Shown: one piece after another, positions 1-58,724 of the stretch
Layout: the number at the start of each line of letters is the position of its first letter
Numbering within the stretch: position 1 is the first letter of the stretch
DNA from: an uncultured Haloferula sp.
Lineage (GTDB): Bacteria; Verrucomicrobiota; Verrucomicrobiia; Verrucomicrobiales; Akkermansiaceae
Assembly: GCA_965652295.1 (NCBI GenBank)
Contig: CBFGTS010000001.1
Span: forward strand, 544,001 to 608,000
Direction: 5' to 3'
DNA length: 64,000 nt
The notes under the pieces: model-generated
What the model was told of the DNA's origin: nothing
Seen by the model: the letters and a program-made list of their open reading frames with translations, nothing else
The model's database searches: none
Program-made: the position numbers and the translations under genes

Positions 1-485
1 CCCTGTTCCTCCGTTTCGGCGAACCGCGGAACCGGCACTGCGGTGGGAGGGGATTCCCAGACGTCCTCCGGCGGGAGTGGGGTGGCTTCGGGCAGGGGTT
101 CCGGAGCGGCGGGGATCGGCTCGGGCTCGGAAGGCGGAGCGGGTGATGGAGCAGGCTCCGGCTCGGAGAACGGCGCGGGCGGCGGCACCGGCTCCGGAGG
201 TCGGCGGAAATACGGGCGGGGGTCGCCTTCGGGTGTTGGGGCTTGCGGGGCGGCGGGGCCGGGTGGGCCGGGGGTCGGCACGAGTTCGGGGAGAGGTGCG
301 ACGGAGACCGGCGGCGCGGGTTCATGCGCGGCGGTGGCGGGAAAGGGCTGGAACGGATCGCTCGTCCGCGGGGGGGCGGAGATCCGTTTGCCGCAGGCCG
401 GACAAGGGCCGGGCACGTCCGCGGAGGACGCCGGGACCCGCAGGAGGATCCGGCAGATGGGACAGTGAAACTGAATGACCTCCAT
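1..485 (-). CDS. Zinc-ribbon plus proline-rich hypothetical protein (runs off the left edge)
   Basis: Not in the ORF track. Manual minus-strand translation from ATG at 485 gives MEVIQFHCPICRILLRVPASSADVPGPCPACGKRISAPP followed by a long P/E/A-rich linker. Two CxxC motifs. Lies 50 bp downstream of the PPTase on the same strand. Confidence 0.7.
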   Translation of the reverse strand, partial: MEVIQFHCPICRILLRVPASSADVPGPCPACGKRISAPPRTSDPFQPFPATAAHEPAPPVSVAPLPELVPTPGPPGPAAPQAPTPEGDPRPYFRRPPEPVPPPAPFSEPEPAPSPAPPSEPEPIPAAPEPLPEATPLPPEDVWESPPTAVPVPRFAETEEQ

Positions 486-535
486 GAAACGGTGTGTGTC
501 GGAAAGGTGACAGAGACTCTTCAGGCTGTCGACCT

Positions 536-1180
536 TCACGCCCAGCTCCACGAACCCTGCCCCTCACCTGTGGCCAGAGCGAAACTGTAGGCCGCAAGGT
601 GCTGGATTTCAGGGCGATGAATGCGGAGCCCGGCGAACTCATCGAGCGTGCCCCGTGCCCGGTCGGCGAAGATGCGCACCGCGGTGGGTGGGTGAGTGAA
701 GCCGGTGCCGAGGCATTTGAGAACCGCCTCCTTCGCCGTCCAGATATCGATCAACCGCCGTCCCTTCTCGGAGTCCGGCTGTTCCTCCACCTCCGCGATT
801 TCCTCCGGATGGCAGAAGGCCTGCTCGCATCCGATGAGTTCGTCGCCCCGCCTCAGAGCCTCGAGGTCGACCCCTACGGGGCCGTCCCGGGAAACGGCCA
901 GCACGCCGTATCGGTCGGTGTGGGTCAGATTGAAGTGCAGCCGGGTTCCGTCGAGAAACGGCTTTCCTTCGGGAGTCGCGCGCCAGACCAGCTCGCGGGC
1001 GGGCAGTCCGGTGTGGGCTCCGAGGCATTGGCGGACCTGGGCCCGGAATGAGGACCATCGATTCCGATCCGCCTCGAAGACGAAACGGGCCGCTTGATTT
1101 CGTTCGGCGGGAGACAGCGCCTCCGACGCTTCCGCAGCAGTGAGGAGTCCGGGGTCGAGGAGGTGGAGCAGAACGGGCAC
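536..1180 (-). CDS. Sfp-type 4'-phosphopantetheinyl transferase
   Basis: Motifs GKP, FNLTHT, VGVDLE and WTAKEAVLKCLGTG; divergent from a PKS/NRPS carrying four carrier domains. Confidence 0.92.
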   Translation of the reverse strand: MPVLLHLLDPGLLTAAEASEALSPAERNQAARFVFEADRNRWSSFRAQVRQCLGAHTGLPARELVWRATPEGKPFLDGTRLHFNLTHTDRYGVLAVSRDGPVGVDLEALRRGDELIGCEQAFCHPEEIAEVEEQPDSEKGRRLIDIWTAKEAVLKCLGTGFTHPPTAVRIFADRARGTLDEFAGLRIHRPEIQHLAAYSFALATGEGQGSWSWA

Positions 1181-1201
1181 GGCGGTGGCGGGGTGGGCGA
1201 A

Positions 1202-1231
1202 TTTGACAAAATTCCAGCGAGGGATGTCAAA
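1202..1231. promoter_or_regulatory. Inverted repeat TTTGACA-N16-TGTCAAA in the divergent PPTase/PKS intergenic region
   Basis: Perfect 7-bp arms in an AT-rich intergenic stretch; each arm contains a TTGACA -35-like hexamer, pointing in opposite directions. Confidence 0.35.
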
Positions 1232-1432
1232 AATACTTAAAATCGCTTCCTACGGAATCGCGTGGGTTCGGGGCGAAATCATCACAACCCTTTTTGGTTA
1301 AGGGTGTTGTGGGTGAAGTTGTTCTTCCGGAGTTCGGTCTGAAAATCTTGTAAAACCAAACTATCTTGTTAGTCTGCGCCTGCGATTCCCCCCATTGAAT
1401 CGCCTTTCACCCTACCCCATACCTCGCCAAGC

Positions 1433-4400
1433 ATGTCCCACGCCCCCTTGGTTGCGGTGCGCCTTAGTGCCACCTTTACGGCCGATCCCATCGTCCCCGT
1501 CCTTTGCCGCTGGTTCGACTCATTCGGCCTCGGTATTCCGGTGGAGGTCACCCCGATGCAGCAGGTTTTGCAGCAGTTGCTCGATCCGGGCAGCGCGCTT
1601 TCCGGAAATCGCGGAGGCGTGAACATCCTGCTCATCCGGGGAAGTGATCTCGCCGTGGACCATGCGGCCCGCGCCCGCTCCGCCGCCCGTGAAGTCGGTG
1701 CCGCGCTGGCGGAGTCGGTTTCCCGCGATGGTATCCGCACGCTGGTCGTGCTGTGTCCCGTCCGGGATGGCGGCGAGGCGGAGGAGATCTTCCGCGACGA
1801 GCTGCGCGATCAGGTCGCCGAAGTCGCGGGGGCGGAGTTCTTCGACGGCGGCGAGGCTGCCGGCCTGTATGACGTCGGGGAAATCTTCGACTCCGAGGCC
1901 GAAGCCGCGGCGTCGCTGCCGTTCACCGAGCCGATGTTCACCGCCCTCGGGACCACCCTCGCCCGGAAGGTGATGGCCGGACTGCGGAAACCGATCAAGG
2001 TCATCGCCGTCGATGCCGATCACACGCTGTGGAACGGCGTGGTCGGGGAGGTTGGATCGCGCGGCGTGGAAATCAGTTCCGCTCGCCAAGCCTTCCAGCG
2101 CGGGTTGATCGATCTCGGCCGCCAAGGCTACCTGCTGTGCCTGGTTTCCAAAAACCATCCGGATGATGTCGAGGCGGTCTTCCGCGAGAATCCGGACATG
2201 GTCATTCCGCGTGATGCCTTCGTGGATGCCGTGGTGAACTGGGAACCGAAATCCGCCAATCTCCAGCGCCTCTCCACCGATCTGAACCTCGGCCTCGACG
2301 CGTTCCTTTTCCTCGACGACAGCCCGGCGGAGATCGCCGAAGTCGCGGCCAACGCACCCGCCGTGTTGGGAGTGCGCGTCCCGGAAAACGAGGATGAGCT
2401 GGCGGGTTTCCTCCGGCATCTGTGGGTGCTCGATGCCCACTCGGTCAGTGCCGAGGACGCCCAACGGACCGATTTTTATCACGACGAAGCGCGCCGTCGC
2501 GAGCTGCGCCAGCGCACGTCCAGCTACGAGGAATTCATCGCCGGGCTCGAACTGCGGATGGACATCGCGGCGCTCGATGATTCCAACCTTGCCCGTGCCA
2601 GCCAGCTGACGCGGCGCACGAACCAGTTCAACTCCTGCCCCCGCCCGCGCGACGAGGCCGAGCTGCGGGAAGGTTCCCGCGGGATGGTCGCGAGGCTCGT
2701 CGAGGTCAGCGACCGCTTCGGTGACTACGGTGCGGTGGGCCTGATGATTTTCCGCGAGGACGGCGGCCGCCTGTGGGCGGAAACCTTTCTCCTGAGCTGC
2801 CGCGCGCTGGGTAAGGGCGTCGAACAACGCATGCTTCGCTATCTCGGCGAGGTGGCTGGAGAGCTGCACCTCGATGAAATCGCGATCTGGTTCAGCGACA
2901 GCGGTCGCAACCAACCCGTCCGCGATTTCCTCGAAAGCCAGCCCGGCCGCTGGGAAGACGAGCTGCGGATCATCCCCGCCGCCGCGGCGCGCGAGTGCTC
3001 GCTGGTGCCTTCGGCCGTCTCCGCCCGGTCGCAGGCGGTCGTCGCCGGAGAGCCGGTCACCGACGCCGAACACATGGCCACCATCGCCCGCGAACTGCGC
3101 ACCGCCGCAGCCATCGCCGCCTGGATGGCCGAGCCGGTGAAATCCCGCCCTGAGATCTCCGAGCGCTTCGTTTCTCCGGAAGGCCCGGTGGAGGAAAAGA
3201 TCGCCGCCATCTGGGCCGGCGTGCTGAACCTCGACAAGGTCGGCCGCAAGGACCGGTTCGTCGATCTCGGTGGCAACTCGCTTCAGCTCGTCCGCGTGCA
3301 CGCGCAGGTCCAGCGGGAGTTCGGCAAACATTTCGAGCTCGTCCGCATGTTCGAGCACCCGACCGTTGAGGAGCAGTCGGAACTCGTCGCCGGTGCGAAA
3401 GCGACTACGGCAGATGTCGTAGAAACCGTTTCCGAAAGCTCGGAGAGCGACGCCCTGGCGATCATCGGCATGGCCGTCCGCCTGCCCGGCGCGAACACAC
3501 CCGAGGAGCTGTGGGAAAACCTACGCAACGGCGTGGAGTCGATCGAACGCTTCACCGCCGGCGACGAGGATGTGCCCGGCCCCGCCGACGACCCGGCCTT
3601 CGTCCGCGCCCGCGGGCTGCTCGCGCCCGAGTTGTACGAGGGCGTCGATGGCGGACTGTTCAGCATCCTGCCACGCGAGGCGGAGATCATCGACCCGCAG
3701 CAACGCGTCTTCCTCGAACTCTGCTGGGAAGCGCTCGAGCGCGGAGGCTACACGCCCGACGCCGCCGAGGCCCAGGGCGGTCGCACCGGCATCTACGCCG
3801 GCTGTTATTACGATACCTACCTGCCGCACCACATCCTGTCCGATCCCGAGTTGCACCGCCGCCATCTTTCCGAAGCGCAGGTCGGCGCGCTGCAGGTGGA
3901 GTTCGGAAATGACAAGGACCACCTCGCGACCCGCGTCGCCTTCAAGCTGAATCTCAAGGGCCCCAGCCTCACCGTCCAGACCGCCTGCTCCAGCTCGCTG
4001 GTCGCCGTTGGCCATGCGGCGATGTCGCTGCGCGCCGGCCATTGTGACATGGCGCTCGCCGGTGGCATCACCATCACCGTTCCGCAAAAGCGCGGCTACC
4101 ACCACGAGGAAGGCGGCATGCTTTCCCGCGACGGCCATTGCCGGCCCTTCGATGCCGACAGCTCCGGCACGGTGTTTTCCAACGGCGGTGGCGTGGTCCT
4201 GCTCAAGCGGCTCAAGGACGCCATCCGCGATGGCGACCACATCCATGCCGTGATCCGCGGCTACGGCCTCAATAATGACGGCGGCACCAAACACAGCTAC
4301 GCCGCGCCGAGCGTCGATGGCCAGGCGGACGCGATCCGCCGCGCCCATCTCGATGCCGGTGTCGACCCCCGCACCATCACCTACATCGAGGCTCACGGCA

Positions 4401-7400
4401 CCGCCACGCCGCTCGGGGACCCGATCGAAATCGCCGGCCTCACCGCCGCGTTCCGTCAAAGTACGGCGGACACCGGGTTTTGCGCCGTCGGTTCGCTCAA
4501 ATCGAACCTCGGTCACCTCGACACCGCCGCCGGTGTCTGCGGACTCATCAAGACCGCGCTTTCCCTCGAGCATGGCGAACTCCCTCCCGTGCTTCATTTC
4601 CAGACGCCGAACCCGCGCATCGACTGGGCCGGCTCGCCGTTCTTCGTCAACGACACGCTCCGGCCATGGCAACCCGCCGGGGGCGCACCGCGCCGCGCCG
4701 GTGTCAGCTCCTTCGGCGTCGGCGGCACCAATGCCCACGTGGTGCTCGAAGAAGCGCCGCGCGACGTCACGCCGCGCGAGGAACCGCAGGGTCCGCGCCT
4801 GTGGGTCCTCTCCGGACGTACGACTTCCGCCGTAGATGAACTCGCCGGGAGGCTCGCCGCCTTCGCAGAAGGTGGCCGCCGCGATTCCTTCGCCGCCGCC
4901 GCCCGCACCATGTCGCTCGGCCGCAAGGCCATGACCCAGCGCGCCGTCGTCGTCGCCCGCGATTGGGATTCGCTCGCCAGCACGCTGCGGGATGCCCGCC
5001 CCGCCGCGATCGAATCCGCCGCCAGCGCTCCCGGACTTGTCTGGATGTTCCCCGGTCAGGGGGCGCAGCACCCGGGCATGACAGCCGACCTTTATGCGGC
5101 CGAGGCGGACTACCGTGCCGACATCGATTTCTGTGCCGACAACCTCAAGCCGCTGCTCGGCGAAGACCTGCGCGACACGCTTTTCGCCGAGGACGGCGAC
5201 GCCGCCGAGCGACTCAAGCACACCGTGCTCGCGCAGCCCGCGATCTTCGTCGTCGAATGGGCGCTGGCCCGCCAGTGGGCGCGTTGGGGCGTGCTGCCGG
5301 AACTCATGATCGGCCACAGCGTCGGCGAGTTCACCGCCGCTTGCCTGGCCGGTGTGTTCTCGATCGAAGACGGCCTGAGGATCCTCGCCGCCCGCGGAAA
5401 GCTGATGGGCGGCATGCCCGGCGGCTCGATGCTCTCGGTCCGTCTTTCCGCCGAAAAGCTCCGTCCGCGTTTGCCGCAGGGCGTCGACCTTGCCGCCAGC
5501 AATGGACCCGACCTCTGCGTCGTCGCCGGTGAGCGCGATGCGGTCGCCGCCTTTGCCGCGCAGCTTGAGACGGGGGGCGTCAACGTCCGTGAACTCCATA
5601 CCTCGCATGCTTTCCACAGCTGGATGATGGATCCCGTCGTCGAGCGCTTCCGCAAGGTCATCGAGGGGGTGAAACTCCACACGCCGAAGATGGCGATTCT
5701 TTCCACGGTGACCGCCTCGCGCCTTACCGACGAGCAGGCGACTGATCCCGGATACTGGGCCTCGCACCTGCGCCACACCGTTGATTTCCACGGAGCCATC
5801 GCTGCCGCGGCCGGGGAAAAGGAAGGTCGCCTCTATCTGGAAGTGGGTCCCGGTCAAACGCTCACCACGCTTTCCCGCCAGACCGCCGGCCGCCTCGGAA
5901 AAGGCTACGTCGCCAGCTGCAATCACCCTGCCTCCGACGCGCCCGACCACGATCGGCTGCTGCTCGCCGCCGGCGAGCTCTGGGCCCATGGCGCGAAGAT
6001 CGATCTCGCCCGTTTCCACGCCGATGCACCGGCGCAACGCGTGCCACTGCCGACTTATCCCTTCCAACGCCGGCGCGCGTGGCTTGAGTGCCGCCTGCTC
6101 GATCGGCCGGTCGAGCGCCTCGCACCGCTGCCGCAATCCGGAACCGTGGCCGACATCGCGGAGGTCCCGGTCATCGCCGCCGCGAGCATGCTCGATCAGG
6201 TCAGGGAAGTGCTCGAAGGCCTTTCCGGCATCCCTGCGGAGGAAATGGAGCCGCGTTTCAGTTTCCTGGAGCTCGGATTCGATTCGCTGCTGCTCACCCA
6301 GGCCGCGCGGGAGCTCGGCAAGACCTTCGGCGTGCCGATCGCGTTCCGAGATCTGATGCAGAATTTCCCGACGCTCGCACAGCTCACCGCCCATCTGGAA
6401 AAGCACGCCGCGCCGGTTGCCCGGGCCGCCGCGCCGGCTCCGGCTACGGCATCTGTCGTAGTGACGCCACCGCAGGATGCCGCCGCTCCCGCCGACATGC
6501 TCGGCCGTGTGCGCGAGGTGCTGGAGGCGCTCTCCGGGATCCCGGCCGCAGAGATGGAGCCACGCTCCGGTTTCCTCGAACTCGGCTTCGACTCGCTGCT
6601 GCTCACCCAGGCCGCGCGAGAGCTCGGCAAGGCTTTCGGCGTGCCGATCGCCTTCCGCGACCTGATGCAGAGCTATCCGACGCTCGCCCAGTTGGTCGCT
6701 CACCTTGAAGCCAATGCGACTGCCGCGCCGTCCGCTCCGGTCGCCAAAGCGGCACCGGTTGCCGTTCCGGCCACCCCGGATCAGCCCGAGGAAGAGTCCG
6801 GAGTTTCCGGCCCGCGCACCCGCATCGACCGCACCCGCAGCGGAGACGAACTCACGCCGCCACAGCGCGCCCACCTCGAGCAACTCATCGCCGAATACTG
6901 CGAGAAGACCCGGACCTCGAAAGCCAAGACCCAGCAGTTCCGCAAGTGGCATGCCGACCCGCGCACGGTCAATGGCTTCAACCGGCTCTACAAGGAGATG
7001 GTCTATCAGATCGTCGCCACCCGCATGAAGGGCAGCCGGATGTGGGACGTGGATGGCAATGAATACATCGACATGGTCAACGGCTTCGGCCCGAACTTTC
7101 TCGGCCACGCGCCCGACTACGTCACCGAAGCCATCCAGGAAGCCCTGGCCACCGGTCTTGAGATCGGCCCGCAGTGCGAGACCGCCATGGAGTGCGCCAA
7201 GCTGTTCTGCGAGGTCACCGGGAACGATCGCGTCTGTTTCCTCAACACCGGCTCGGAAGCGGTGCAGGCGGCGATGCGGATCGCGCGGACGGTCACCGGC
7301 CGCGACAAGATCCTGGTCTTCGACAAGGACTACCACGGCAACTTCGACCCGGTCCTCGTCCGCTCCGTCGGCAAGGGCGCGCGCCGCCGCACGCTGCCGC

Positions 7401-10400
7401 TCGCGCCCGGAATTCCGGACAGCGCGGTGGGTGATGTGATCGTGGTGCCGTGGGGCAAACCCGAGGCGCTCGACATGATCCGCGAGATCGCCCACGAGCT
7501 GGCCGCCGTGCTCGTCGAACCGGTGCAGAGCCGCCAGCCGGAGCTGATTCCGATCGAGTTCGTCCACGAGGTGAAGAAGATCTCCGAGGAGAGCGGCTTC
7601 CTGCTGGTCTTCGACGAGGTCATCACCGGCATCCGCCAGGGACCGGGCGGTTCGCAGGACCTCTACGGCATCCGCGCCGACCTCGCGACCTACGGCAAGG
7701 TCTTCGGCGGCGGTGCCCTGCCGATCGGCATCATTGGTGGCAAGGCGAAGTACATGGACACCTTCGACGGCGGCCAGTGGCAGTATGGCGACGATTCCTT
7801 CCCGGAAAAGGAAGTCACTTTCTTCGCCGGCACCTTCGTCCGTCTGCCTCTCGCCATGGCCGCCTGCCGTGCGGTGCTGAAGCACGTCCAGGCCCAGCCG
7901 AAATCCTACTGGCAGGACATCGGTGCGCGCGCCGATCGCCTCGCCCGCACGGTGGACCGTATGTTCCGCGACCACGGGATCGACGTTCGCATGGTGAACT
8001 TCAACTCGCAGATGTATCTCCGCGTCGGCGAGAGCGAGAAGCACGGCAACCTGATCTACTATCATCTCCGTAAACGCGGGGTGTTCGCGATGGAGGGGCT
8101 GCCCTTCTACCTGACCGCGGCGCATACGGACGCCGATGTTGATTTCGTGATCAATGCCTTCCGCGAAACGATCGCCGCACTCCAGGACGGCGGCTTCTTC
8201 CCGCGGCTCTCCATTTCCACGGAAACCGAAGCGGCTCCCGGAGTGCGAGGGCCGTTCCCGATGACCGAGCCGATGTCCGAGCTCTGGCTCGCCTCACTGC
8301 TCGGTGAGGAGGCGAACCTTGCTTTCAACGAAATGCTCCAGCTCCGGCTGGAAGGAAGCATCGATCTCGCCGCCGTCCGGCGCGCCTTGCAGGACCTCGT
8401 GGATCGTCACGACGCACTCCGTCTCCGCGTGCCTTCGCAGGAGAGCCCGCAGTTCGTGGTCGATTCGCGGCAGGAGATTTGTCTGATTGAAAAGGACTTC
8501 CGCGGGCTGGCCGATGCCGAGCAGAGCCTCGTCGAGGCCGGCCTCGAACAACGTGAGACGCCCTTCGATCTTGCCCGTGGTCCACTCTTCCGGGTGGTGG
8601 TCGCCCGCCTGCGCGACGACCTCACGGTGCTTCAATTCGTCGCCCACCATCTTGCGGCCGATGGCTGGTCATTCGAGGTCCTGATGAAGGACTTCAAGGT
8701 CTGCTACGAAGCCCGCAAGGTCGGCATGAAGCCGATCCTCAAGGGAGCGCCGTCGATCGTCGACCGCGCGCTGCGCGAACACCAGCAGGGCGGGGGAGAC
8801 GAAGCCGCGCTGGACTGGTGGCGCGAACGCTTCGCCAGCGGCGTGATCGAGGCCGATCTGCCCCTCAATAAGCCCTATGGCGCGGAGCCGGTTTACCGTT
8901 CCGCGACCTGCGAACTGATGCTCGACCGCACCATCGCCGAGCGCATGAAGGAGCTCGCCCGCAAGTGCGGCGCGACGCTCAACAGCACGCTCCTGGGTGG
9001 CTTCGAGGCGCTCGTCCACAGGCTCACGGGACAGTCCGAGTTCGTCCTGACTTTCCCCTCCGCCGGGCAGATGAGCTCGAACGAGGAGGCCCTCGTCGGT
9101 CATTGCGTGAATTTCCTGCCGCTGCCCGCCGAGGTCGACCCCGAGGCCTCGTTCAAGCAAGTCGTCGCCAAGGCGTCGTCGAACCAGCTCGACGTCCTCG
9201 AGCACGGCGAGATCACCTACGGGCAGCTCCTGCGCGCGCTGAAGCTCGGTCGCGATGGCGGTCGCCGGCCGATGATGGAGATCATCTTCAACCTCGAGCC
9301 TTCCGGCGATCCCGGCTACATCGGCAACCTCCGCGCCAAGGTGGAAACCGTTCCGGCCCGCTACAGCAATTCCACGATCTTCCTCAATCTCATGATCATG
9401 CCGGACGGCCTGCTGCTGTCGTCCACCTACAACCGTGAGTTGATCGACGAGGGCACGATGATGGCCTGGCTCGAGTCCTTCCGGGAGCTGCTGCTTGATG
9501 CCGCCCAGGATCCGACCAAGCCGGTCGGTCTGCTCAACCTTCTCGGCTCCGAAGCCCGTGCCCGGATCGAATCGTGGAGCCAGGGAGGAAGTACGGTGCT
9601 TCCCGTAAGCGTGTCCGACCGCTTCCGGGAAACCGCCGAGACCCACGCCACGCGCACCGCCCTGGATTGGGACGGCGGCAGCATGAACTACCATGATCTT
9701 GCCGCCCGCGTGTCCGGTCTCGCCAACGAACTCATCGCCCGCGGCGTGCAGCCCGGCGACCGCGTGGGCATCCACCTCGAGCGGGGCCCGGAGTTGATCA
9801 TTTCCATCCTCGCCGTGCTTGAGGCTGGCGGCTGCTACGTGCCGGTGGATTCCGGCTTTCCCGCCGACCGCCGTCGCCAGGTCTTCAACCAATGCGATGT
9901 GCGCCTCGTGCTCACCTGCGGCGATGGCGATGGCTGCGCGACGCTCGATCCGTCGACGGTCGGTACCGGTCCGGCCGGGCCGGTCCGCCGCCGGCCGCAC
10001 GATCCGGCCTACGTCATGTTCACCTCCGGCACCACCGGGGTGCCAAAGGGTGTGGTGGTCCCGCATTCCGGCATCATTCGGCTGGTGACGAACACGAAAT
10101 ACTGCCAGTTCTCACCGGAGGAAACCTTCCTCCAGGCGGCGACTCCGGCCTTCGATGCCGCCACGTTCGAGATCTTCGGCCCGCTGCTCAATGGCGGCCG
10201 GCTCGTTCTCCTCAACCCCGGCGAAACCTCGCTGGCGGACATCGCCACCGCGATCCGCGACAAGGGGGTGAGCACCGTGTGGCTCACCGCGGGATTGTTC
10301 GAGCTGATGGTCGATGAGCACCTCGACGACCTCAAGGGTTTGCGCCAGCTCCTCGCCGGTGGCGACGTGCTTTCCGTGCTCCACGTGCAACGCGCCTATC

Positions 10401-12160: not shown

Positions 12161-12245
12161 TGGTTTGAAAACCCCGATCTTTAGCATGAGTGATATTGAC
12201 TGAAATTGAATCCATTCCGCCCTTTGTTTATTTCCTGACCCCCCG

Positions 12246-13520
12246 GTGAAATATCTTCTTCCAACCCGATCCTCGCGGATTCCGGCGATGGTCGCCTGTC
12301 TGATGCTGACGGGCCTGACCGCGATGAGCCGTGCCCAGCAGGGGCTCGACGAACTGGTGGAATATCACCCCGTCCAGCGCGTCGAGGACTCACGCGTCGA
12401 CGCCGCCATGGGTGAAGCGATCTGGCTCCCGCCGCGGGAAATGGAGCTCGAACCCGAGCCGGTTGAGCAGGGTTGGAACATCGGCGTGCAGCTGGACGCT
12501 GCCTACAACGACAATATTTTTCTCAGCCGCTCGAACCCCGAGGCCGACGTGGTGATCCGCCTCACGCCGAAGGTGGAGTGGGTCCACGGCGTGGAGGGCG
12601 ACGAAGGCGCACATCTGGCGGTTGTTTACCGTCCGTCCGGCGTGGTCTATCTCGATCACGGTGGCGACAACCGGATCGATCACGAACTGACGGTCGCGGC
12701 GGGGTATGAGGGACCCCGGACCGGCGTCGTTTACCAAGGAGGCTTCCGCCGCCTCGGCGAACCGACGTCCGAGCTGGGCGGCATCCGGTCCGATCGCACC
12801 GAGTCCGCGAACGAGCTGCGACTGATCTGGAAGCCGAAGGAAAAGATCGGCGTGCAGGTGGCCGTCGGCCAAACGACGCGGGACTACGACGAACCGATCC
12901 TGGCGGGGTCCGAATCACTTTATCTTGAGGCGGCGCTGGAATATGCCTACTCGCCGAAGACTCGCTTCATCGCCGCCTATCGCAGCGGCAGGTTCGAGGT
13001 GGATCGCTCGCCGGAGCAAACCTTCGATCAGGCCACGTTGCAGATGGTATGGCAGCCGCGCGAGAAATGGACCGTGAGCCTGAAAGGTGGCGTGGAATGG
13101 CGCGACTACGCGCAGGGTGGGGATGCCTACGGGGTGTTCGACGCCCGTGTGGAATGGGCTGCACGCGCCGGCACCTCGCTGTTCGTTGCGGGCTACCGTC
13201 GTGAGGACGTTTCAGCGGTGTTCGCCGGGCAGAACATCGAAGTCACGGGTGTCAGCGCCGGTGTGCGGCAAAAGCTCGGCGAGCGCTGGACCGCCACGGT
13301 CGAGGCAGGCCTGGAGCAATCCGACTACAAGGTCGTCGCCGGGGCGGGTACGGCGGGCCGCAGTGACGAGGTGATCTTCGTCCGGCCGGCATTGCAGTAT
13401 TCGATCAGCGAGGATTTCCGGCTCGGCACGTATTATCGGTATGAAAGGAACGCGTCCACGGCCGCCGCGTTCGGTTACGACAATCACCAGATGGGAGTGG
13501 AACTTGAATATGAATTTTAA
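12246..13520 (+). CDS. Outer-membrane beta-barrel protein associated with exopolysaccharide export
   Basis: Signal peptide, YNDNIF motif, alternating beta-strand pattern, C-terminal ELEYEF; overlaps the start of the OPX gene. Alternative start ATG at 12288. Confidence 0.8.
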   Translation: MKYLLPTRSSRIPAMVACLMLTGLTAMSRAQQGLDELVEYHPVQRVEDSRVDAAMGEAIWLPPREMELEPEPVEQGWNIGVQLDAAYNDNIFLSRSNPEADVVIRLTPKVEWVHGVEGDEGAHLAVVYRPSGVVYLDHGGDNRIDHELTVAAGYEGPRTGVVYQGGFRRLGEPTSELGGIRSDRTESANELRLIWKPKEKIGVQVAVGQTTRDYDEPILAGSESLYLEAALEYAYSPKTRFIAAYRSGRFEVDRSPEQTFDQATLQMVWQPREKWTVSLKGGVEWRDYAQGGDAYGVFDARVEWAARAGTSLFVAGYRREDVSAVFAGQNIEVTGVSAGVRQKLGERWTATVEAGLEQSDYKVVAGAGTAGRSDEVIFVRPALQYSISEDFRLGTYYRYERNASTAAAFGYDNHQMGVELEYEF

Positions 13521-14085
13521 TCTGAAGCATCTCTGGCTGGGCTGCCTGCTGGCTCTCGGGGTCGGCCTGGTTCCGGCATCGGCCCAGGAAGCCTCGTCCG
13601 GCATCATCGGCAGCCGCGACAGCGTCGAAATCCGGGTTTTCCGCGAAGATGACCTGACCACCCGCGCCCAGCTCTCCGCCACCGGGGAGGTCGAAATGCC
13701 GCTGATCGGCGCGGTGAAAATCGCCGGTCTCACCACCAGCGAAGCCGGCCGCGTGATCGAGCGGAAGCTGCGCGATGGCTACCTCGTGAAGCCCGAGGTG
13801 AGCGTGGCGATCACCGGACGCGTCCGGAAAACCGTGACGGTGCTCGGTCAGGCGCAGAGACCGGGCGTGTTCCAGCTCGATCCGAACCGCGAGCTGACCA
13901 TCGTCGAGGCCATCGGTTTGGCGGGCGGCATGACGCGCATCGCCAACGCGAAGAAGATCACTCTCAAGCGCAAGGGCTCGGCGAAACCCTACCGGGTGGA
14001 CCTCCGCGCCATCACCTCGGGCGAGGCGAAGGACATCCCGCTGCGGGATGGCGACGTGATCACGATCCCTGAAAGCATGTTTTGA
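13510..14085 (+). CDS. Short polysaccharide export (OPX/Wza-like) protein, Poly_export + SLBB
   Basis: Motifs GEVEMPLIGAVKIAGLT, VTVLGQAQRPG and LRDGDVITIPE; Sec-type signal ending ASA; start moved to ATG 13510. Confidence 0.88.
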   Translation: MNFNLKHLWLGCLLALGVGLVPASAQEASSGIIGSRDSVEIRVFREDDLTTRAQLSATGEVEMPLIGAVKIAGLTTSEAGRVIERKLRDGYLVKPEVSVAITGRVRKTVTVLGQAQRPGVFQLDPNRELTIVEAIGLAGGMTRIANAKKITLKRKGSAKPYRVDLRAITSGEAKDIPLRDGDVITIPESMF

Positions 14086-14095
14086 TCCGACCTCG

Positions 14096-16276
14096 ATGAA
14101 TCATCACCTATCACGAACGGAACCCCAGGTTTCCCCCGCCGCGCCCGGTCCGGCGGGTGGCGCGGATCCGACGTTTTTCCTGCCGAAAGTCGAGGTTTCC
14201 CGCGTCGCCGGGTTCCTGCGCCGCTGGGCATGGCTGCCGCTGGCGCTGGCCGTCCTCGGAGGGCTGGTCGGCTGGTTCATCGCCCAGCGGGCGACGAAGT
14301 ACTACGTCTCCCATGGATCGGTCTACGTCAGCACGGAGGCGCCCAGGATTTCCGAAATCCAGGCATCGACCACCGAGGAATCGCGCGATCTGGAGCAAAT
14401 GCAGTCGGTCGAGCAGGGCATGCTTTCCAACATGCTGCTGATGCAGGTGGCGGACCGGCTGGGTCTGGCCAAGGATCCGGGCTTCGCCCCGGAGGCGACC
14501 ACGGATCAGCAGAGGCTGGAGGTGCTCGCGGACCGCGTGGACGTGGCCCTGCGCCGCGGGACGCGACTGATCGATATCACCGTGGAAGACACCGACCCTG
14601 AGCGCGCCCGCCGGATCGCCGAGGCGGTGAAGCAGGAATACGAGTCGCTCAGCGCCGACCGTCAGGAGGTCATCCTGCAGGAGATGATTGCCGGCCTCGA
14701 CGTGGAGGAACGCCGGTTGCGGGCCAAGATGGAGGCATCGCAGCAGGCGGTGCGGGATTTCCGCGAGCAGCATCCGGAGCCGGGCCTCGATGGTCAGCCG
14801 GGCACGGGGAGCGCCCGCGATGAACTCTCGGTTCTGGGAGCGCAGCTCACCGAAGCGAAGACGGGGCGGATGAAGCTGGAGTCCGAGCGCGAGGCGTTCG
14901 CGCGCTTCGATCCCGAGGATCCGGATGCCCTTGCCGGCCTGCCGCAAAGCGAGACGGCGACCGAGGTGGCGGGGCTTCTGAGAGAGGTGCGCGCCAAGCA
15001 ACTCGACTTCGCCCGCGTCAAGGAACGCTATCTTTTCAAGCACCCCGAATACCAGCGCGCCGAGGCGGAGCTGACTGAAACCATGAGGAGCCTGAAGGCC
15101 GCGATGGTGACCGCCGGTGAAGCGATCGAAAAACGTTACCGGATCGCGCTGGAGAACGAGCAGAAGCTCGAGCGCGAGGTGGCCGCCGCCAAGACCCAGG
15201 CGGTGGATGTCGAGGGGATGCGGAGCGAGTTCGTCCGGCTCATGCGCCTGGCGGAGAACAATGTGGAACTCCACCAACAGGTTTCGCGGCAGTTGCGCGA
15301 GGCGAACCTCGCCGGCTCGGTGCCGGCCTCGGTGCTGAGTTGGCGCGATCAACCGACGGTGCCGGAGAAGCCGTCCCGTCCCCGCAAGGTCCTGATGGTC
15401 GGGCTGGGCTCGGTGCTGGCCTTCTTCTTCGGACTCGTCGCTGCGGTGGGCCTGGAGATGTCGGATCGGAAAGTCCGTGGTGCGGCCAGCGCGATGCGGG
15501 CGACCGGGGTTCCGATGTTGGGCCAGCTTCCGGCGGGCGATGGGCGCTCCGGGGCTGTGGTGCTTTCCGATCCCCGTTCGGCGTTGGCCGATGCTTTCCG
15601 CCGCCTCCGCGTGGTGCTTTCCCCGAGCCCGCAGAGCGGCCGGGTGCCATCGATTCTCTTCACCTCCGCCACCGCGGGGGAGGGAGCCTCCTTCTGTGCG
15701 GTGAACCATGCGGTCTCGCTCGCGTTGGAGGGCCATCGCACCTTGCTGATCGATGCCGATCTGCGGACTCCGGGCATCAGCCGCGAGCACCTGCGCGAGC
15801 GGGCCGGCCACCTCGGACTCGGCGGCTACCTCGAAGGACGGGCCACCGCTGCCGACGCCTGCGTCCGCACACCGGTCCCGGCGCTCTACCTCATTTCCTC
15901 CGGTGAAATGCGCGGGGATGCCTCCGAATTGCTGTCCCGCACCCGGCTTCCGGCCTTGCTGGAAGAGGCGGGCAGTTGGTTCGACCGCGTCGTCATCGAC
16001 GCTCCGGCCGTGCTCGGATCCAGCGACGCCCAGGTCGTCGCACGCAGCGCCGACCGGACCTGCCTGGTCGTCGGCGAGGCAGGCGCGAACCGCCGCGAGC
16101 TGCGCGAGGCGGCCAAACACCTTCGCGATGCCGGCGGCAATCTCGTCGGCTTCATCTGGAACGAGCATCCGGTTGGGCCCGGCGAGGCCCCTTCGCTGGC
16201 CGTCGCGCGGGAGGGAATCGCAGGTAATTCCCACGACGACTTGATTGTTTCTCCCCCTAACCGCACTTCATCTTGA
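14096..16276 (+). CDS. Wzc/GumC-like polysaccharide co-polymerase with BY-kinase-like domain
   Basis: Two TM segments flanking a coiled-coil region, YLFKHP and PEKPSRPRK motifs, C-terminal domain with TSATAGEGAS, LLIDADLR and VVIDAP. Confidence 0.88.
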   Translation: MNHHLSRTEPQVSPAAPGPAGGADPTFFLPKVEVSRVAGFLRRWAWLPLALAVLGGLVGWFIAQRATKYYVSHGSVYVSTEAPRISEIQASTTEESRDLEQMQSVEQGMLSNMLLMQVADRLGLAKDPGFAPEATTDQQRLEVLADRVDVALRRGTRLIDITVEDTDPERARRIAEAVKQEYESLSADRQEVILQEMIAGLDVEERRLRAKMEASQQAVRDFREQHPEPGLDGQPGTGSARDELSVLGAQLTEAKTGRMKLESEREAFARFDPEDPDALAGLPQSETATEVAGLLREVRAKQLDFARVKERYLFKHPEYQRAEAELTETMRSLKAAMVTAGEAIEKRYRIALENEQKLEREVAAAKTQAVDVEGMRSEFVRLMRLAENNVELHQQVSRQLREANLAGSVPASVLSWRDQPTVPEKPSRPRKVLMVGLGSVLAFFFGLVAAVGLEMSDRKVRGAASAMRATGVPMLGQLPAGDGRSGAVVLSDPRSALADAFRRLRVVLSPSPQSGRVPSILFTSATAGEGASFCAVNHAVSLALEGHRTLLIDADLRTPGISREHLRERAGHLGLGGYLEGRATAADACVRTPVPALYLISSGEMRGDASELLSRTRLPALLEEAGSWFDRVVIDAPAVLGSSDAQVVARSADRTCLVVGEAGANRRELREAAKHLRDAGGNLVGFIWNEHPVGPGEAPSLAVAREGIAGNSHDDLIVSPPNRTSS

Positions 16277-16366
16277 CATTTAAGACCTCTGCGCAATGAT
16301 GCGGGTCCCTCACCGCGTTTAGCGGCGCGTAGACCGCTCCCCAAGCTGTCCCCCCCACCCCCCAAA

Positions 16367-17866
16367 ATGAACCTCACGACACCCCCCCGGTCGTGCGAAT
16401 CTCCCGTTTCTACGGGAACCGCGCCTGAACGAAGGCAGCGTTTGTTTACGCTGCGTCACCGCCATCGTACTTGGATGGCGCACCAGAAACTGGTCGCCCT
16501 GAGTTTCCTCGGCGATTCCGCGATCGTTCTCTTCAGCCTGCTCTCGGCGTATTTGCTGCGATTCGAGACCAGCTTCCGCGAAGTGGGCGTGCTCGATCAT
16601 GCGATCGACATGCGCGACTACGCCGGCCACGTCATCCTGGGCGGCGTGCTGATGATCTTCCTGCTGGCGAATTTCCGCGCCCACGATCCCCGCAATTTCC
16701 TGGCGATCCGGCGTACGCTTTGCCTGGTTTTCAAGTCGGTCGCGATCTGGCTGGTGCTGTTCCTCGGCTTGGCGCTGCTTTTGAAAATCGAGCCGCCGAT
16801 CAGCCGGATGTATTGCATCATCGGCGCGTCGCTCGCGGTCGTTTCCCTGAGCCTCTGGCGTTGGGTGCTCTATTGCCTGCTGCGCCGTGAACCGATCGCC
16901 TCCGCGTTGCGGCAGAAGGTGGTGTTCGTGGGTTGGAATGAGGACTGTGAACGCGGTGCCGCCCGTTTCTCGGAAGGTCGGGCCCATGCGTTCCAGGTCC
17001 TCGGCCGGATCGCCACGGATCGCGATGAAGCGACCGTCGGTGACGTGCCGGTCCTCGGGGATTTCTCCGACGCCCGCCATCTGCTTCGCGAAACCGGAGC
17101 CGATGTGGTGATGGCCGTGGATGGTGCCCTCGATCGCGTCCAGATGATCGAACTGGCGGAGACCTGCGGCAAGGAGTTCATCGACTTCAAGCTGATGCCC
17201 AGTTGCTTTCAGGTGCTCGTCTCCGGTCTCCAGCTGGAAACCGTCCACGGGGTGCCGGTTCTCGGTGTCGGCCACCTGCCGCTGCACCACGCGATGAACA
17301 ACGCCGCGAAGCGCGTCACGGATGTGCTGGGTGCGCTCTTCGGGCTTCTTTTCTTCGCCCCGATCATGGCGATCTTCGCGGGCCTCGTTTATCTCGAAAG
17401 CCGCGGTCCGGTGATCTACCGTCAGCGCCGCATTGGCCTCAACGGCAAGCCTTTCGAAATCCTGAAAATCCGCAGCATGAAGCTCGATGCCGAGTCCGGC
17501 GGTGCTCCGGGTTGGACGGTTTCCGACGACCCGCGCCGTCTCAAGGTCGGAGCCATCATGCGCGCCTGGAACATCGATGAGCTGCCGCAGTTCTGGAACG
17601 TGCTGCGCGGCGAGATGAGTCTCGTCGGTCCGCGTCCGGAACGCCCGGAGCTGATCGAGGATTTCAAGGAGGACATCCGCTACTACAACGTCCGTCACAA
17701 CGTGAAGCCCGGCGTGACCGGCTGGGCCCAGGTCAACGGTCTGCGCGGGGACACCTGCCTGCGCGAGCGCGTGAAGTTCGACCTCGACTACATCGAGAAC
17801 TGGAACTTCTGGCTCGATGTCCAGATCATGTTCCTGACTTTCTTCAAGCGTAAGGGTGCCTGCTGA
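16367..17866 (+). CDS. Polyprenyl-phosphate sugar-1-phosphate transferase (WcaJ/WbaP-like priming enzyme)
   Basis: N-terminal TM helices, Rossmann-like middle region, C-terminal KIRSM, IDELPQFWNVLRGEMSLVGPRPE, KPGVTGWAQVNG and DLDYIENW. Confidence 0.93.
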   Translation: MNLTTPPRSCESPVSTGTAPERRQRLFTLRHRHRTWMAHQKLVALSFLGDSAIVLFSLLSAYLLRFETSFREVGVLDHAIDMRDYAGHVILGGVLMIFLLANFRAHDPRNFLAIRRTLCLVFKSVAIWLVLFLGLALLLKIEPPISRMYCIIGASLAVVSLSLWRWVLYCLLRREPIASALRQKVVFVGWNEDCERGAARFSEGRAHAFQVLGRIATDRDEATVGDVPVLGDFSDARHLLRETGADVVMAVDGALDRVQMIELAETCGKEFIDFKLMPSCFQVLVSGLQLETVHGVPVLGVGHLPLHHAMNNAAKRVTDVLGALFGLLFFAPIMAIFAGLVYLESRGPVIYRQRRIGLNGKPFEILKIRSMKLDAESGGAPGWTVSDDPRRLKVGAIMRAWNIDELPQFWNVLRGEMSLVGPRPERPELIEDFKEDIRYYNVRHNVKPGVTGWAQVNGLRGDTCLRERVKFDLDYIENWNFWLDVQIMFLTFFKRKGAC

Positions 17867-17890
17867 TCGCGGCTTCCCAGCCCGCGCCGG

Positions 17891-19237
17891 ATGTTTATGA
17901 TCGACCCCGTGGAAACAACGGAGGCTGTCGATCACGGCGCGCGGCGGGATTTGTCGATCCGGCTCGCCGTGCTGACCTCCTTCCTTTCGAAGGGCGGCAC
18001 GGTGCTTCTGCAACTCATCGCCTTGCCCGCAGCCCTGCGGGTGATGGGCCGCGCGGAGTTCGGGATTTTCGGCACCGTGAGCACCGCGCTCGCCACCGTC
18101 CATCTGTTGGAGATCGGTATCGGCCCGGCCCTGGCCCACGGCATTTCCAAGGCAGGGGCCACGGATGACCACGATCTCCGCCGCCGTCTTGCCTCGACCG
18201 CATTCTTCTTGGTCGCGGCCATCGGAGTGCTGGCGGGGCTGTTGCTCAGCGGGGTTCTGCTGACCGTTCCGATCACCTCGCTCTTCGGCGAAAAGTACGC
18301 AGGCACGGAGGCGGCGATGCGGCCGGCCTTGTGGCTGGGCCTCGGTCTTTTCCTCGGGCTCTATCTGCTCAACCTCACCGACCGGCTCCGTGAGGGGCTT
18401 CTGGAGGTCGCCTCCACCAATACCTGGGGCGCGGCGGGCAATGTGCTGGCGGCGATCGCCGTCGGCATCGGCGTATTATGGATTCCCGAGGTGTGGTACC
18501 TGGTCCTCGCCGTCCATGGCTCGGTGGTCCTGGCGAAACTGGGGAACACCGTCTCGCTGTGGCGACGGCACGTCGATCTGCGACCGCGGCTGAAATCCCT
18601 CGATCGTTCTTTGGCGCGTCTGCTGGTGAGCGATGGAGCGGCGTTCGCCACCTGCGCCCTGCTCGTGGGTTTCGTCGAATACAACGTCTGCACTTGGCTG
18701 GTCGGGCACCGCAGCGGACCCGACGTCGTCGCGCTCTACATGATCTTCGTGCAGGTCAGCGTCATGCAGCTCGGCTTTGTCATGATGCTCAGCACGCCCA
18801 CCTGGCCGGCCGTGGCCGAGGCGCTGGCCCGCGAGGATGTCGCGTGGGCCCGCCACGCGTCGAAGCGGCTTTACCTGCTCGGGATGGGTTTCGCGGCGTG
18901 CGCGGCGGTGGGGTGGGTCACGCTCGGTCCGTGGGTGTTGCACCTGTGGCTGGGCGATGAGTTCACCGGCCTGCCACGGACGCTCATGGCCGCCTTCGCC
19001 TTCTACTTCGCCGCCCACGCGTGGCGGCACCTCAATCACGTCCTGATGATCGGCACCGGCCAGGTCAGAACGCTCGCCCGTATTCAGCTGGTTGAAACCG
19101 CCCTCGTGGCGGTGGCCGCGTGGTGGGCGCTCCACCGCGGTGGTGTCGATGCCATGCTGGTCGCCATGGGCGTCACGATTCTCGCCGTGACGGGCTGGCT
19201 TCTTCCGATCCGCGTGAAGCGGGGGCTCAATGGTTGA
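17891..19237 (+). CDS. Wzx-like (MOP family) oligosaccharide flippase
   Basis: About 12 hydrophobic segments, N-terminal pattern MGRAEFGIFGT...LEIGIG, and position at the end of a polysaccharide export cluster. Confidence 0.75.
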   Translation: MFMIDPVETTEAVDHGARRDLSIRLAVLTSFLSKGGTVLLQLIALPAALRVMGRAEFGIFGTVSTALATVHLLEIGIGPALAHGISKAGATDDHDLRRRLASTAFFLVAAIGVLAGLLLSGVLLTVPITSLFGEKYAGTEAAMRPALWLGLGLFLGLYLLNLTDRLREGLLEVASTNTWGAAGNVLAAIAVGIGVLWIPEVWYLVLAVHGSVVLAKLGNTVSLWRRHVDLRPRLKSLDRSLARLLVSDGAAFATCALLVGFVEYNVCTWLVGHRSGPDVVALYMIFVQVSVMQLGFVMMLSTPTWPAVAEALAREDVAWARHASKRLYLLGMGFAACAAVGWVTLGPWVLHLWLGDEFTGLPRTLMAAFAFYFAAHAWRHLNHVLMIGTGQVRTLARIQLVETALVAVAAWWALHRGGVDAMLVAMGVTILAVTGWLLPIRVKRGLNG

Positions 19238-22019: not shown

Positions 22020-22021
22020 GG

Positions 22022-24391: not shown

Positions 24392-24434
24392 GGCGAGGTG
24401 GAAGAAAAGCGAGTTTCAAACTCGCTCCCCATAC

Positions 24435-25754
24435 TCATGCGAGGATGCTTTCGAGGACGCTGCCGCCATCGACGATCTCGATCGGGCGGTTGCCGGGTGC
24501 CATGAGCTCCTTGTCGGCGGTGATGCCGATCTGGTGGTAAACGGTCGTGGCCAGGTCGGCGACGCTGACCGCATCGGTATCGACCTCGCCGCCGAGGGCG
24601 TCCGACGAGCCGTGGACGTGGCCTCGTTTCACGCCACCGCCGGCGAGCATCACGGAAAAAACGCGCGGCCAGTGGTCGCGACCGCCGGTGGGGTTGATCT
24701 TCGGCGTGCGGCCGAATTCGGAGGTCACCATGACCAGCGTGCTGTCGAGCATGCCGCGCTCTTCGAGATCGGTGATGAGGGCGGCGATGGCTTGATCGAC
24801 CGGTGGCAGCTCGCGTTCGACGCCGCCCTTGATGTTGTCGTGGTGATCCCAGCCACCGGCGGTCAGGGAAACGAAGCGCACGCCGCCCTCGATCAAACGC
24901 CGGGCGAGCAGCATCCGCTGGCCGGGGGCGTGGCGACCGTAGCGGTCCTTCATCGCGTCCGGCTCGGCTTTCAGGTTGAAGGCCTCGCGTGCGGCCTGCG
25001 AGGAGATGAGCTTGTAGGCGTGCTGGTAGAAGGCATCCATGGAGTCGAGCGCGTCGGACGACTCGAGGTGGCGGAAATGGTGGTCGACGGTTTCCAGCAG
25101 GGACCGGCGGCGGGCGAAGCGGTGGTCATCGACGCCCTTCGGCAGGTTCAGGTCCCGCACCTGGAAATCGCCGCGCGCGGGATCGGAGCCGAGTGCGAAC
25201 GGACCGAAGGCGGAGGAAAGGTAGCCGGAATTGGCGAATTCGTTCGGAACCGAGGGCACGCAGACGTACGGCGGGAGGTTGTTGCGCGGGCCGAGTTCAT
25301 GAGAAATGACCGAGCCGATCGAAGGATACTCGACGGCGGGCGAGGGGCGGTAGCCGGTGAACATGTTGTGCGTGCCGCGTTCGTGGGCGGCTTCGCCGTG
25401 GGACATCGAGCGGATGATCGTGGTCTTGTCCGCGATCTTGGCGAGGTGCTGGAGTTTTTCGCCGAACTGGACGCCGGAGAGGGAGGTGTCGATCGCGCCG
25501 AACGGTCCGCGATATTCGGCCGGGGCGTAGGGTTTCGGATCGAAGGACTCCTGGTGGGACATTCCGCCGGGGAGGAAGATGTGGATGATCCCCTTCGCGA
25601 CGCCCTCCTTGGTTTCGTAGAACTTCTGGGCGGCGCTGGCTTTTCCGAGAAAGCCCGGGAGGGTGAGACCGAGGCCGCCGAGCAGACCAACGTAGAAGAA
25701 CTCGCGACGGGTCGAGTAGCGTTCGAGCGGATTGCCGGGGCAGTGCGGTTTCAT
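24435..25754 (-). CDS. DUF1501 domain protein (Tat-exported)
   Basis: Twin-arginine leader STRREFF, FLPGGMSHQESFDPKP, GGWDHH, SEFGRTP and GRDHWP motifs. Confidence 0.92.
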   Translation of the reverse strand: MKPHCPGNPLERYSTRREFFYVGLLGGLGLTLPGFLGKASAAQKFYETKEGVAKGIIHIFLPGGMSHQESFDPKPYAPAEYRGPFGAIDTSLSGVQFGEKLQHLAKIADKTTIIRSMSHGEAAHERGTHNMFTGYRPSPAVEYPSIGSVISHELGPRNNLPPYVCVPSVPNEFANSGYLSSAFGPFALGSDPARGDFQVRDLNLPKGVDDHRFARRRSLLETVDHHFRHLESSDALDSMDAFYQHAYKLISSQAAREAFNLKAEPDAMKDRYGRHAPGQRMLLARRLIEGGVRFVSLTAGGWDHHDNIKGGVERELPPVDQAIAALITDLEERGMLDSTLVMVTSEFGRTPKINPTGGRDHWPRVFSVMLAGGGVKRGHVHGSSDALGGEVDTDAVSVADLATTVYHQIGITADKELMAPGNRPIEIVDGGSVLESILA

Positions 25755-30669: not shown

Positions 30670-30753
30670 CGGCGTTTTTCATAAATGTGCATAAGCTGTC
30701 TTATCCAGTGAAAACTACACTGAGAGAGTTTTTGGGGGCTGAAAGACTTGTCT

Positions 30754-30830
30754 CCGGCCCGCCGCTGGACACACCGGAAGCCCACCGCGCCGCCGCCGAT
30801 CTCAAGCCCGCCTTCCCCGGGAAACGCTGA
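30754..30830 (+). repeat. 77-bp direct repeat, copy 2 (orphan sulfatase 3' end including stop codon)
   Basis: Encodes the same terminal residues GPPLDTPEAHRAAADLKPAFPGKR-stop; the two differences are TTT/TTC and CCG/CCC. Confidence 0.95.
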
Positions 30831-30891
30831 GAGCCGCGGGTGGCGAAAACCTTCGCAAGCGGTTGACGGCGGCGCTAGCCTGCGGGCGGCT

Positions 30892-31458: not shown

Positions 31459-31464
31459 GACGTC

Positions 31465-44318: not shown

Positions 44319-44363
44319 CGGCGGGCATTATTTTCGGAAGCGGTGGAAAAAACGCGCCTCCCG

Positions 44364-44390
44364 TGTCGGGATTTCCGGCGGCTTCTCGTT
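44364..44390 (+). promoter_or_regulatory. Putative ECF promoter TGTCGG-N17-CGTT
   Basis: tgtcgggatttccggcggcttctcgtt between kinase 2 and its cargo genes. Confidence 0.6.
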
Positions 44391-44462
44391 CTTTCCGTGA
44401 ATCCTCCATTCTGCCCCAGCACTTGCCGGGGGGGCTTGGGGGGTTCCGAAAGCCCCATATCC

Positions 44463-55854: not shown

Positions 55855-55863
55855 GACGATGCC

Positions 55864-57252: not shown

Positions 57253-57267
57253 AGCGCGTTTGTAGCC

Positions 57268-58711: not shown

Positions 58712-58724
58712 CCGTTTCTCCACC

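Follow-up and report, generated by a model that had tools for sequence, protein, structure and literature searches.

A hybrid polyketide-peptide synthase beside a split exopolysaccharide pathway in Haloferula and its relatives: a candidate source of glycan side chains

We describe a hybrid polyketide synthase-nonribosomal peptide synthetase (PKS-NRPS), and the exopolysaccharide (EPS) export cassette that follows it, in 64,000 nucleotides from an uncultured Haloferula sp. (GenBank assembly GCA_965652295.1, contig CBFGTS010000001.1, positions 544,001 to 608,000; the whole of this stretch is here called the window). We suggest that the synthase probably makes an amino-acyl-valine unit that is attached to a glycan, because it co-occurs with one complete polysaccharide pathway and has a control signal in common with it. 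On balance we favour a reading in which the locus unites the synthase with the export arm of a single, split Wzx/Wzy pathway, the synthase supplying the side chain of the glycan. The evidence for this coupling is comparative. The parts are of known kinds; the system itself is real, well supported and uncharacterised. In the literature searched, which left most subscription papers outside, we found no account of the locus and none of a solved megasynthase-made EPS substituent, and the accessible text of a Luteolibacter study lists antiSMASH classes only (PMC11427321). A preliminary description of this DNA had likewise known of no characterised system with this architecture, although the attachment idea itself has already been proposed for carenaemin (PMC8313283, seen in part).

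The source genome (4.37 Mb, 63.5% GC, 98% complete) is labelled G000 and belongs to genus g1; G, C and L denote genomes, contigs and loci, g1, g3 and g12 are genera, and the window is G000 C1:544001-608000. The family was sampled as one draw of 121 genomes, searched with each protein in turn. The closest named relatives of the locus are Haloferula and Luteolibacter loci, and cultured strains of both genera are among the carriers of the synthase system.

Organization of the locus

The synthase, its flanking genes and the cassette comprise the following features, in window coordinates. ACP and T are carrier domains; KS is ketosynthase, AT acyltransferase, C condensation, A adenylation and TE thioesterase.

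1..551, minus strand: protein with Zn-ribbon, Pro-rich segment, single transmembrane (TM) segment and periplasmic domain; cut by the window edge
536..1180, minus strand: Sfp/HetI-like 4'-phosphopantetheinyl transferase (PPTase); PF01648 and PF22624, HetI model below cut-off
1249..1266, no strand: palindromic operator-like site, core ACG-nn-AT-nn-CGT, between PPTase and synthase
1433..12160, plus strand: hybrid synthase, 3575 aa; profile matches, all catalytic motifs searched for found
about 1994-2956 (aa188-508), plus strand: synthase N-terminal domain, then FkbH; TIGR01686 above cut-off
KS about 3455-4600, plus strand: synthase ACP, then KS; Cys-His-His present
about 5039-5887, plus strand: synthase AT; GHSxG with HAFH
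after AT, plus strand: two synthase ACPs, then class-III aminotransferase (AMT); pyridoxal phosphate (PLP) lysine present
about 8285-9565, plus strand: synthase C; HHxxxDG present
A about 9623-11011, plus strand: synthase A with predicted Val-like pocket, then T; A3 motif present
about 11375-12157, plus strand: synthase TE; Ser-Asp-His present
12246..13520, plus strand: outer-membrane beta-barrel porin, BBP2_2 / EpsL-like; profile match
13441..14085, plus strand: short outer-membrane polysaccharide export protein (OPX) of class 3 type, Poly_export and SLBB; likely start near 13510, no other Pfam domain
14096..16276, plus strand: Wzc-like polysaccharide co-polymerase, predicted pseudokinase; degenerate Walker A, no Tyr tail
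16367..17866, plus strand: WcaJ-like priming enzyme, a polyprenyl glycosylphosphotransferase; PF02397, TIGR03025 above cut-off, WcaJ model just below
17891..19237, plus strand: Wzx flippase; PF01943 above cut-off

Profile matches and motifs confirm the gene content and order of the preliminary description, namely a synthase with its PPTase and, after an 85-bp gap, same-strand genes for barrel, OPX, Wzc, priming transferase and flippase; the Zn-ribbon membrane-protein gene after the PPTase gene and the operator at 1249-1266 had been omitted there. The PPTase gene is divergent from the synthase gene. Within the synthase the order is FkbH-ACP-KS-AT-ACP2-aminotransferase-C-A-T-TE with four carrier serines intact, and its KS is the sole modular one among 5 KS hits genome-wide. 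No terminator was seen in the 85-bp gap between synthase and barrel genes by a promoter and terminator scan that performed at chance level, and an Rfam search gave no match. In several relatives the barrel gene is preceded by an operator of its own, which bears on co-transcription across the gap.

The OPX, of Poly_export and SLBB only and encoded beside a barrel gene, is that of a class-3 translocon, class 3 being the short Poly_export-SLBB type in the accessible text of its definition (PMC9603273). In the cassette Wzc an Ala replaces the Walker A Lys and there is no Tyr-rich tail, whereas the second Wzc of the same genome has both the Lys and the tail; the Lys is kept in 3 of 21 cassette-Wzc homologs, and the Tyr tail in none of the 21 over the aligned part. 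The degenerate Walker A and the missing tail lead us to predict a kinase-dead protein, unlike the active E. coli Wzc type.

Glycosyltransferases and a Wzy-like protein encoded in trans

The preliminary description noted that no elongating glycosyltransferase (GT) or Wzy is present. This is true of the locus only, because the genes sit in trans. No GT or Wzy family matched the 30 window open reading frames (ORFs), 10 further window ORFs or the 27 ORFs of the 40 kb to the left; elsewhere in the genome lie three GT4-fold genes (C1:38726-42371, two of the three weakly scored) and a polytopic Wzy_C-like gene (C17:61855-63216). In g12 the flippase ortholog sits with GT4 genes, two of which have their G000 orthologs at C1:38.7-42.4 kb (39% and 56%), and in G041 a GT operon adjoining the cassette encodes an 8-TM protein whose ortholog here is C17:61855-63216 (56%). 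Atlas neighbours of this C17 protein carry Wzy_C at 0.99, but it has no NCBIfam match, and Wzy_C covers ligases as well as polymerases. In relatives its homologs are part of the GT operon, and 12 of the 13 g1 and g3 relatives whose GT region was retrieved keep the order GTa-(GTb)-Wzy-GTc. Wzy has moved out of that operon in G098 and in the source genome, where the pathway is split over three places.

A window-edge artefact was rejected on the 27 GT-free ORFs to the left, and a Wzy-free pathway on the co-occurrence of the C17 gene with the cassette. Recruiting the GT cluster of C15 and the barrel-Wzc-OPX genes of C22 as partners was not needed, that Wzc being nearly universal in the sample. These genes (L069-L071) form a second, family-wide export system with barrel, active-type Wzc and OPX, and its GT cluster has exosortase and O-antigen-ligase-like genes. 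A freed glucosamine as acceptor is unsupported in the source genome, which lacks homologs of the g12 deacetylase and methyltransferase.

Co-occurrence and synteny

Wzx, Wzc, GTa and the Wzy-like protein each match the same 21 of the 121 family genomes, which are G000, 11 of the 12 other g1 genomes, 3/12 of g3 and 6/8 of g12; the control Wzc (C22) is found in 116/121. TE homologs over most of the length (E<=1e-30) are present in all 21; G058 and G077 gave partial matches only. The aminotransferase (E<=1e-100) occurs in 19 genomes: the unrelated G013 and all of the 21 except G090, G067 and G085. We attach no p-value to this co-occurrence, kin not being independent.

Two kinds of line accompany the cassette: type I, the FkbH synthase, and type II, a divergent three-gene line without the FkbH starter. 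The synteny with EPS genes proposed beforehand as a check was borne out, in that all 15 close type-I loci extending past the TE run on into barrel-OPX-Wzc and all 15 cassette-bearing g1 and g3 genomes (Haloferula/Luteolibacter-type) have a synthase beside the cassette. In the 68 of 108 flanking ORFs scanned we saw no conserved efflux pump, tailoring gene or membrane acyltransferase; an acyltransferase-GT fusion is found only in G041 and G005.

The Zn-ribbon gene spans G000 C1:542977-544551, with its likely start at window position 485. It lies 3' of the PPTase gene here, while its g12 homolog precedes the flippase gene. The C-terminal domain of its product occurs in 23/121 family genomes, the 21 of the pathway plus G106 and G011; searches of Pfam and NCBIfam gave no match for the protein, and Atlas gave unnamed clusters only.

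A shared operator-like palindrome

The palindrome upstream of the synthase recurs ahead of the remote GT operon and, in many related genomes, ahead of the barrel gene. It stands before 5/5 type-I synthases of g1 and g3, 8/12 barrel genes and 12/13 GT operons of these genera. When a matrix trained solely on 14 synthase promoters was used to rank the 3131 upstream regions of the source genome, all 14 GT promoters of g1 and g3 scored within the top 2%, 12 of them in the top 1% and the source genome's own at 1.2%, with the 5 g12 GT promoters at background. Support for the operator comes from this conservation and not from the window match, because the single match there (0.11 expected) is equalled by 11 of 100 shuffles. 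The top 12 genome hits are all intergenic. Judged from these sites, the synthase and the GT operon are likely co-regulated. About 20 strong intergenic copies occur in the genome (e.g., C7:64050, C2:13066, C12:43985, C1:337278), and the genes behind them include PEP-CTERM, large secreted and ECF-sigma-like ones.

Predicted product and exchangeable front ends

FkbH proteins load D-glycerate from 1,3-bisphosphoglycerate; in lines of this kind KS and AT add malonate, a MycA-type aminotransferase converts the beta-ketone to an amine, and C and A add one amino acid. The FkbH domain here is a candidate for this loading step, with a HAD DxDxT motif, a C-terminal Cys and an adjacent ACP. The best PDB match of the aminotransferase is MycA (6kfm, E 3e-122), and the KS-AT-ACP-PLP aminotransferase-C-A order with its catalytic residues is that of the MycA/McyE-type aminating module. 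Read by eye with GrsA numbering, the A pocket carries a valine-like signature. A domain search of the synthase found no ketoreductase (KR), dehydratase (DH) or enoylreductase (ER) and no fatty-acyl loading domain.

The 15 cassette genomes of g1 and g3 have the co-oriented FkbH synthase in 6 cases and divergent A-T / KS-AT-ACP-AMT-C-A / C-A-T-TE genes in 9, the middle module of the latter being presumably Gly- or Ala-like by its signature; in G090 a type-II line has lost AT and part of the aminotransferase. In the aminotransferase tree (58 rows, quick method) type I (99) and type II (100) are separate clades that no supported node unites, while the motifs of the last A pocket are shared by both. 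In the TE tree (40 rows, which a 70% coverage filter stripped of G377, G339, G353, G359 and G313b), 31 rows form one clade, with support 100/99 and long-branch warnings, that includes type I, type II, g12, G396, L020, L021, G368, G067 and G085. On these comparisons the Val-like A-T-TE end is the constant part of the lines. The same TE is found in 16/25 genomes of family f71, and TEs with a Cys nucleophile occur in g12 and L259.

For the TE, a single-sequence model was poor (pLDDT 44), and an alignment-based model (pLDDT 87) was used for the fold search. Its best Foldseek matches are Pks13-TE and NocB-TE (TM about 0.65, with about 22-25% identity to Pks13). The Pks13 match does not show transferase activity, because NocB and fatty acid synthase TEs score alike.

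Some lines bring further domains. The synthase of G396 (L184:5564-16942) begins with a fused carbon-nitrogen hydrolase, and a gene for one directly precedes the synthase in g12 (L086, L088, L089, L092). We take it to be a possible omega-amidase for the aminotransferase, with glutamine as the putative donor, the best model (PRK10438) being below cut-off; the nearest such hydrolase of the source genome resembles N-carbamoylputrescine amidase. Stand-alone C-A-T-TE genes of the same TE group (L263, L274, L275) are preceded by a GNAT (Acetyltransf_6) gene and one for a protein of ~540 aa. Pedobacter has A-ACP-KS-AT-ACP-AMT / C-A-T-TE lines (L027, L036, L040) with the TE outside the clade; the L027 line has FkbM, two GT2, GT14 and amino-sugar genes around it.

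Other placements beside glycan genes

The TE scan yielded 80 loci for neighbourhood comparison. In G081 an extra C-A-T-TE gene (1302 aa) lies about 25 bp after the GT-Wzy operon, directly after GTc. Five loci of family f70 (L209, L211, L218, L222, L224) adjoin a different Wzx/Wzy cluster with GH99-like, GT4, priming transferase / co-polymerase, Wzx and Wzy genes, the line in L224 being a bare C-A-T-TE. This second Wzy occurs in 16/201 genomes of the order, all 16 of which have the TE at E<=1e-90 (found in 18/201), both genes lying within 13 kb in 8. For five TE loci with no cluster beside them, the genome encodes the window-type Wzy at another place in 5/5 cases and the second Wzy as well in 3/5, so the acceptor glycan in f70 is ambiguous. 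A Wzy_C gene follows L267, and a GT2 gene follows each of L239, L258 and L276.

Neighbouring genes in the window

Genes for a DUF1549/1553 cytochrome, a PPC-domain protein and a DUF1501 protein (19227-25754, minus strand) converge on the flippase gene and are not kept beside the cassette in relatives. Two paralogous pairs of ECF sigma factor and Ser/Thr kinase genes follow (30748-33660, 41549-44318), the kinases 50% identical, with PEP-CTERM genes near them (29896-30669, 44343-45230) and a third at 38144-38887. A defence island of lower GC (53057-61973) has the M, S and R genes of a type I restriction-modification system, among which an ApeA-HEPN gene and a DUF488 gene are interposed, and a tryptophan-halogenase-family gene lies at 62073-63923 (minus strand).

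Discussion

We think it probable, from domain content and gene company, that the synthase makes 3-amino-4,5-dihydroxypentanoyl-valine and that its TE grafts this unit onto a lipid-linked repeat. Glycerate loaded by FkbH, malonate, transamination and valine would together place the unit on the last carrier, while the priming transferase and the three GT4s would build an undecaprenyl-PP-linked repeat in the cytoplasm. The TE would move the unit, whose mass we calculate by hand as +230.13 Da, to an amine or hydroxyl group on that repeat, the dedicated Wzx would flip it decorated, the C17 Wzy would polymerise such units, and the kinase-dead co-polymerase, OPX and barrel would export the polymer. 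We place the transfer before flipping because no exporter or membrane acyltransferase was seen conserved in the flanking ORFs scanned. The TE would act as a transferase, a role that the preliminary description raised as possible. Its view of the product as a building block or substituent of a glycan gains from the co-occurrence and the shared operator; its picture of a cluster working without GTs or Wzy is not supported. A wider proposal, which we put forward tentatively and rate a little short of probable, is that the Verrucomicrobiales TE clade may consist of peptidyl transferases onto undecaprenyl-linked repeats, served by interchangeable front ends (glycerate, amino acid with an extra Gly/Ala module, bare C-A-T-TE, KR hybrid) and by one transcription factor.

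Several observations weigh against the coupling of synthase and glycan. The 21 genomes belong to only three genera, so that co-occurrence may be largely shared descent; the within-genus contrasts are G106, 9/12 of g3 and 2/8 of g12. Synthase and cassette are unlinked in 4/4 g12 genomes, and the palindrome is absent from 9/9 g12 promoters (5/5 GT, 4/4 synthase), as it is before the source genome's barrel and Wzy genes. It also stands before about 20 unrelated genes (22/3131 at score >=14.9), and of 10 matrices with shuffled columns 1 scored more hits in the genome than the true matrix did. G383 carries no AMT synthase but does have related genes for Wzx, GT and Wzy. In G067 and G085 (90% and 85% complete) the only line is an unlinked A-T-KS-AT-KR-ACP-TE, and its position in the TE clade depends on long branches. 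Half of the f70-type loci with long downstream flanks (5/10) have no second cluster there, three Hydrogenophaga loci with the same A-T-TE show no glycan genes among scanned neighbours, and eight genomes outside the family have AMT hybrids with no cassette nearby. The TE fold match is generic and neither supports nor excludes transfer.

It is also conceivable, if unlikely, that the TE hydrolyses or cyclises aminodihydroxypentanoyl-Val to a free diffusible metabolite and that adjacency to EPS genes reflects one surface or biofilm regulon. The PEP-CTERM and large secreted proteins of the operator regulon would fit such a metabolite, as would the unlinked g12 synthase, the Hydrogenophaga loci and the ordinary Ser-Asp-His set of the TE. 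The shared operator does not separate this account from that of a glycan substituent, because both predict co-regulation. Against a free metabolite stand the want of a conserved exporter among the scanned neighbours, the match of the TE clade to the glycan genes in 21/21 genomes and its placement by GT or Wzy genes in several independent arrangements; the AMT hybrids of G377, G359, G339 and G353, with TEs alike over about 105 residues only, have no export cassette nearby.

Another envelope acceptor, whether a glycan ligated by the Wzy_C protein to PEP-CTERM proteins, a chain-end cap or a lipid anchor (the last modelled on what has reportedly been proposed for WcbR or RkpA), seems very improbable. 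Wzy_C does cover ligases, and PEP-CTERM genes, some with the operator, follow the TE gene in four type-II loci; the scanned type-I loci have no PEP-CTERM neighbours, and the synthase is without a fatty-acyl loading domain. We regard as rather improbable a fate like that of carenaemin, in which an acyl-peptide would be joined to a lipid-linked oligosaccharide, flipped by Wzx and released as a small diffusible glycopeptide. In its favour, the KS/AT-aminotransferase NRPS-PKS of carenaemin does need a Wzy-type locus to make a diffusible antifungal, and the cpl cluster has a carbon-nitrogen amidase (PMC8313283, accessible text), as do the g12 loci and G396. The linked co-polymerase, OPX, barrel and Wzy, all of them proteins of polymer export, and a predicted product without a lipid tail speak for the glycan side chain instead.

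Carenaemin (cpl, Collimonas arenae Cal35) is a precedent for the idea of attachment, its authors having proposed, not proved, that an NRPS/PKS core is joined to a lipid-linked Wzy repeat unit. According to the text available to us, it shares with the window locus a KS/AT-aminotransferase NRPS-PKS with PPTase and amidase and depends genetically on a Wzx/Wzy locus; unlike the product envisaged here, it is a diffusible antifungal of unsolved structure, from a larger line with three A domains, KR/DH, a PUFA-type protein and a pyruvyl transferase, where the window locus has one A, no KR/DH and no pyruvyl transferase. That text does not mention an FkbH starter or a linked OPX/barrel cassette (PMC8313283). 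A set like that of cpl, with PUFA-type PKS, polysaccharide pyruvyl transferase and AMT-containing NRPS-PKS together, is found in G013 (C19, L103-L104). The Myxococcus EPS type also has a class-3 OPX beside a barrel, with co-polymerase, priming transferase, Wzx, GTs and Wzy (PMC9603273, in part); the window pathway differs in lying at three separate loci and in being inherited together with a megasynthase. The top Foldseek and NCBIfam match of the window TE is the thioesterase of mycobacterial Pks13, an enzyme with acyltransferase activity that gives rise to a trehalose ester (PMC13324839, accessible text). MycA (mycosubtilin) and McyE build lipopeptide or cyclic products; the window synthase, which has their KS-AT-ACP-AMT-C-A layout, differs in its predicted glycerate starter, one amino acid and immediate TE. 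Burkholderia WcbR and Sinorhizobium RkpA are reducing capsule PKSs without NRPS modules, alike in applying carrier-protein chemistry to a surface polymer, whereas the window synthase lacks KR/DH/ER and has C-A-T-TE. D-alanylation by DltABCD also uses carrier-protein chemistry for a surface polymer, with a separate membrane acyltransferase; none was seen conserved with the window pathway.

NRPS-PKS genes whose product is not known recur in polysaccharide loci, and genome mining labels them antibiotic clusters. The present case offers a whole candidate pathway, a predicted substituent with its mass, natural front-end variants and an operator; because these are given, and the carriers include cultured strains, the question of whether assembly lines decorate exopolysaccharides becomes directly testable. 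If the grafting proposal is correct, bacteria would have a further way of decorating polymers with peptides, and a TE would be able to acylate lipid-linked glycans; under the wider proposal, related species would share one polysaccharide backbone with differing peptide-polyketide side chains.

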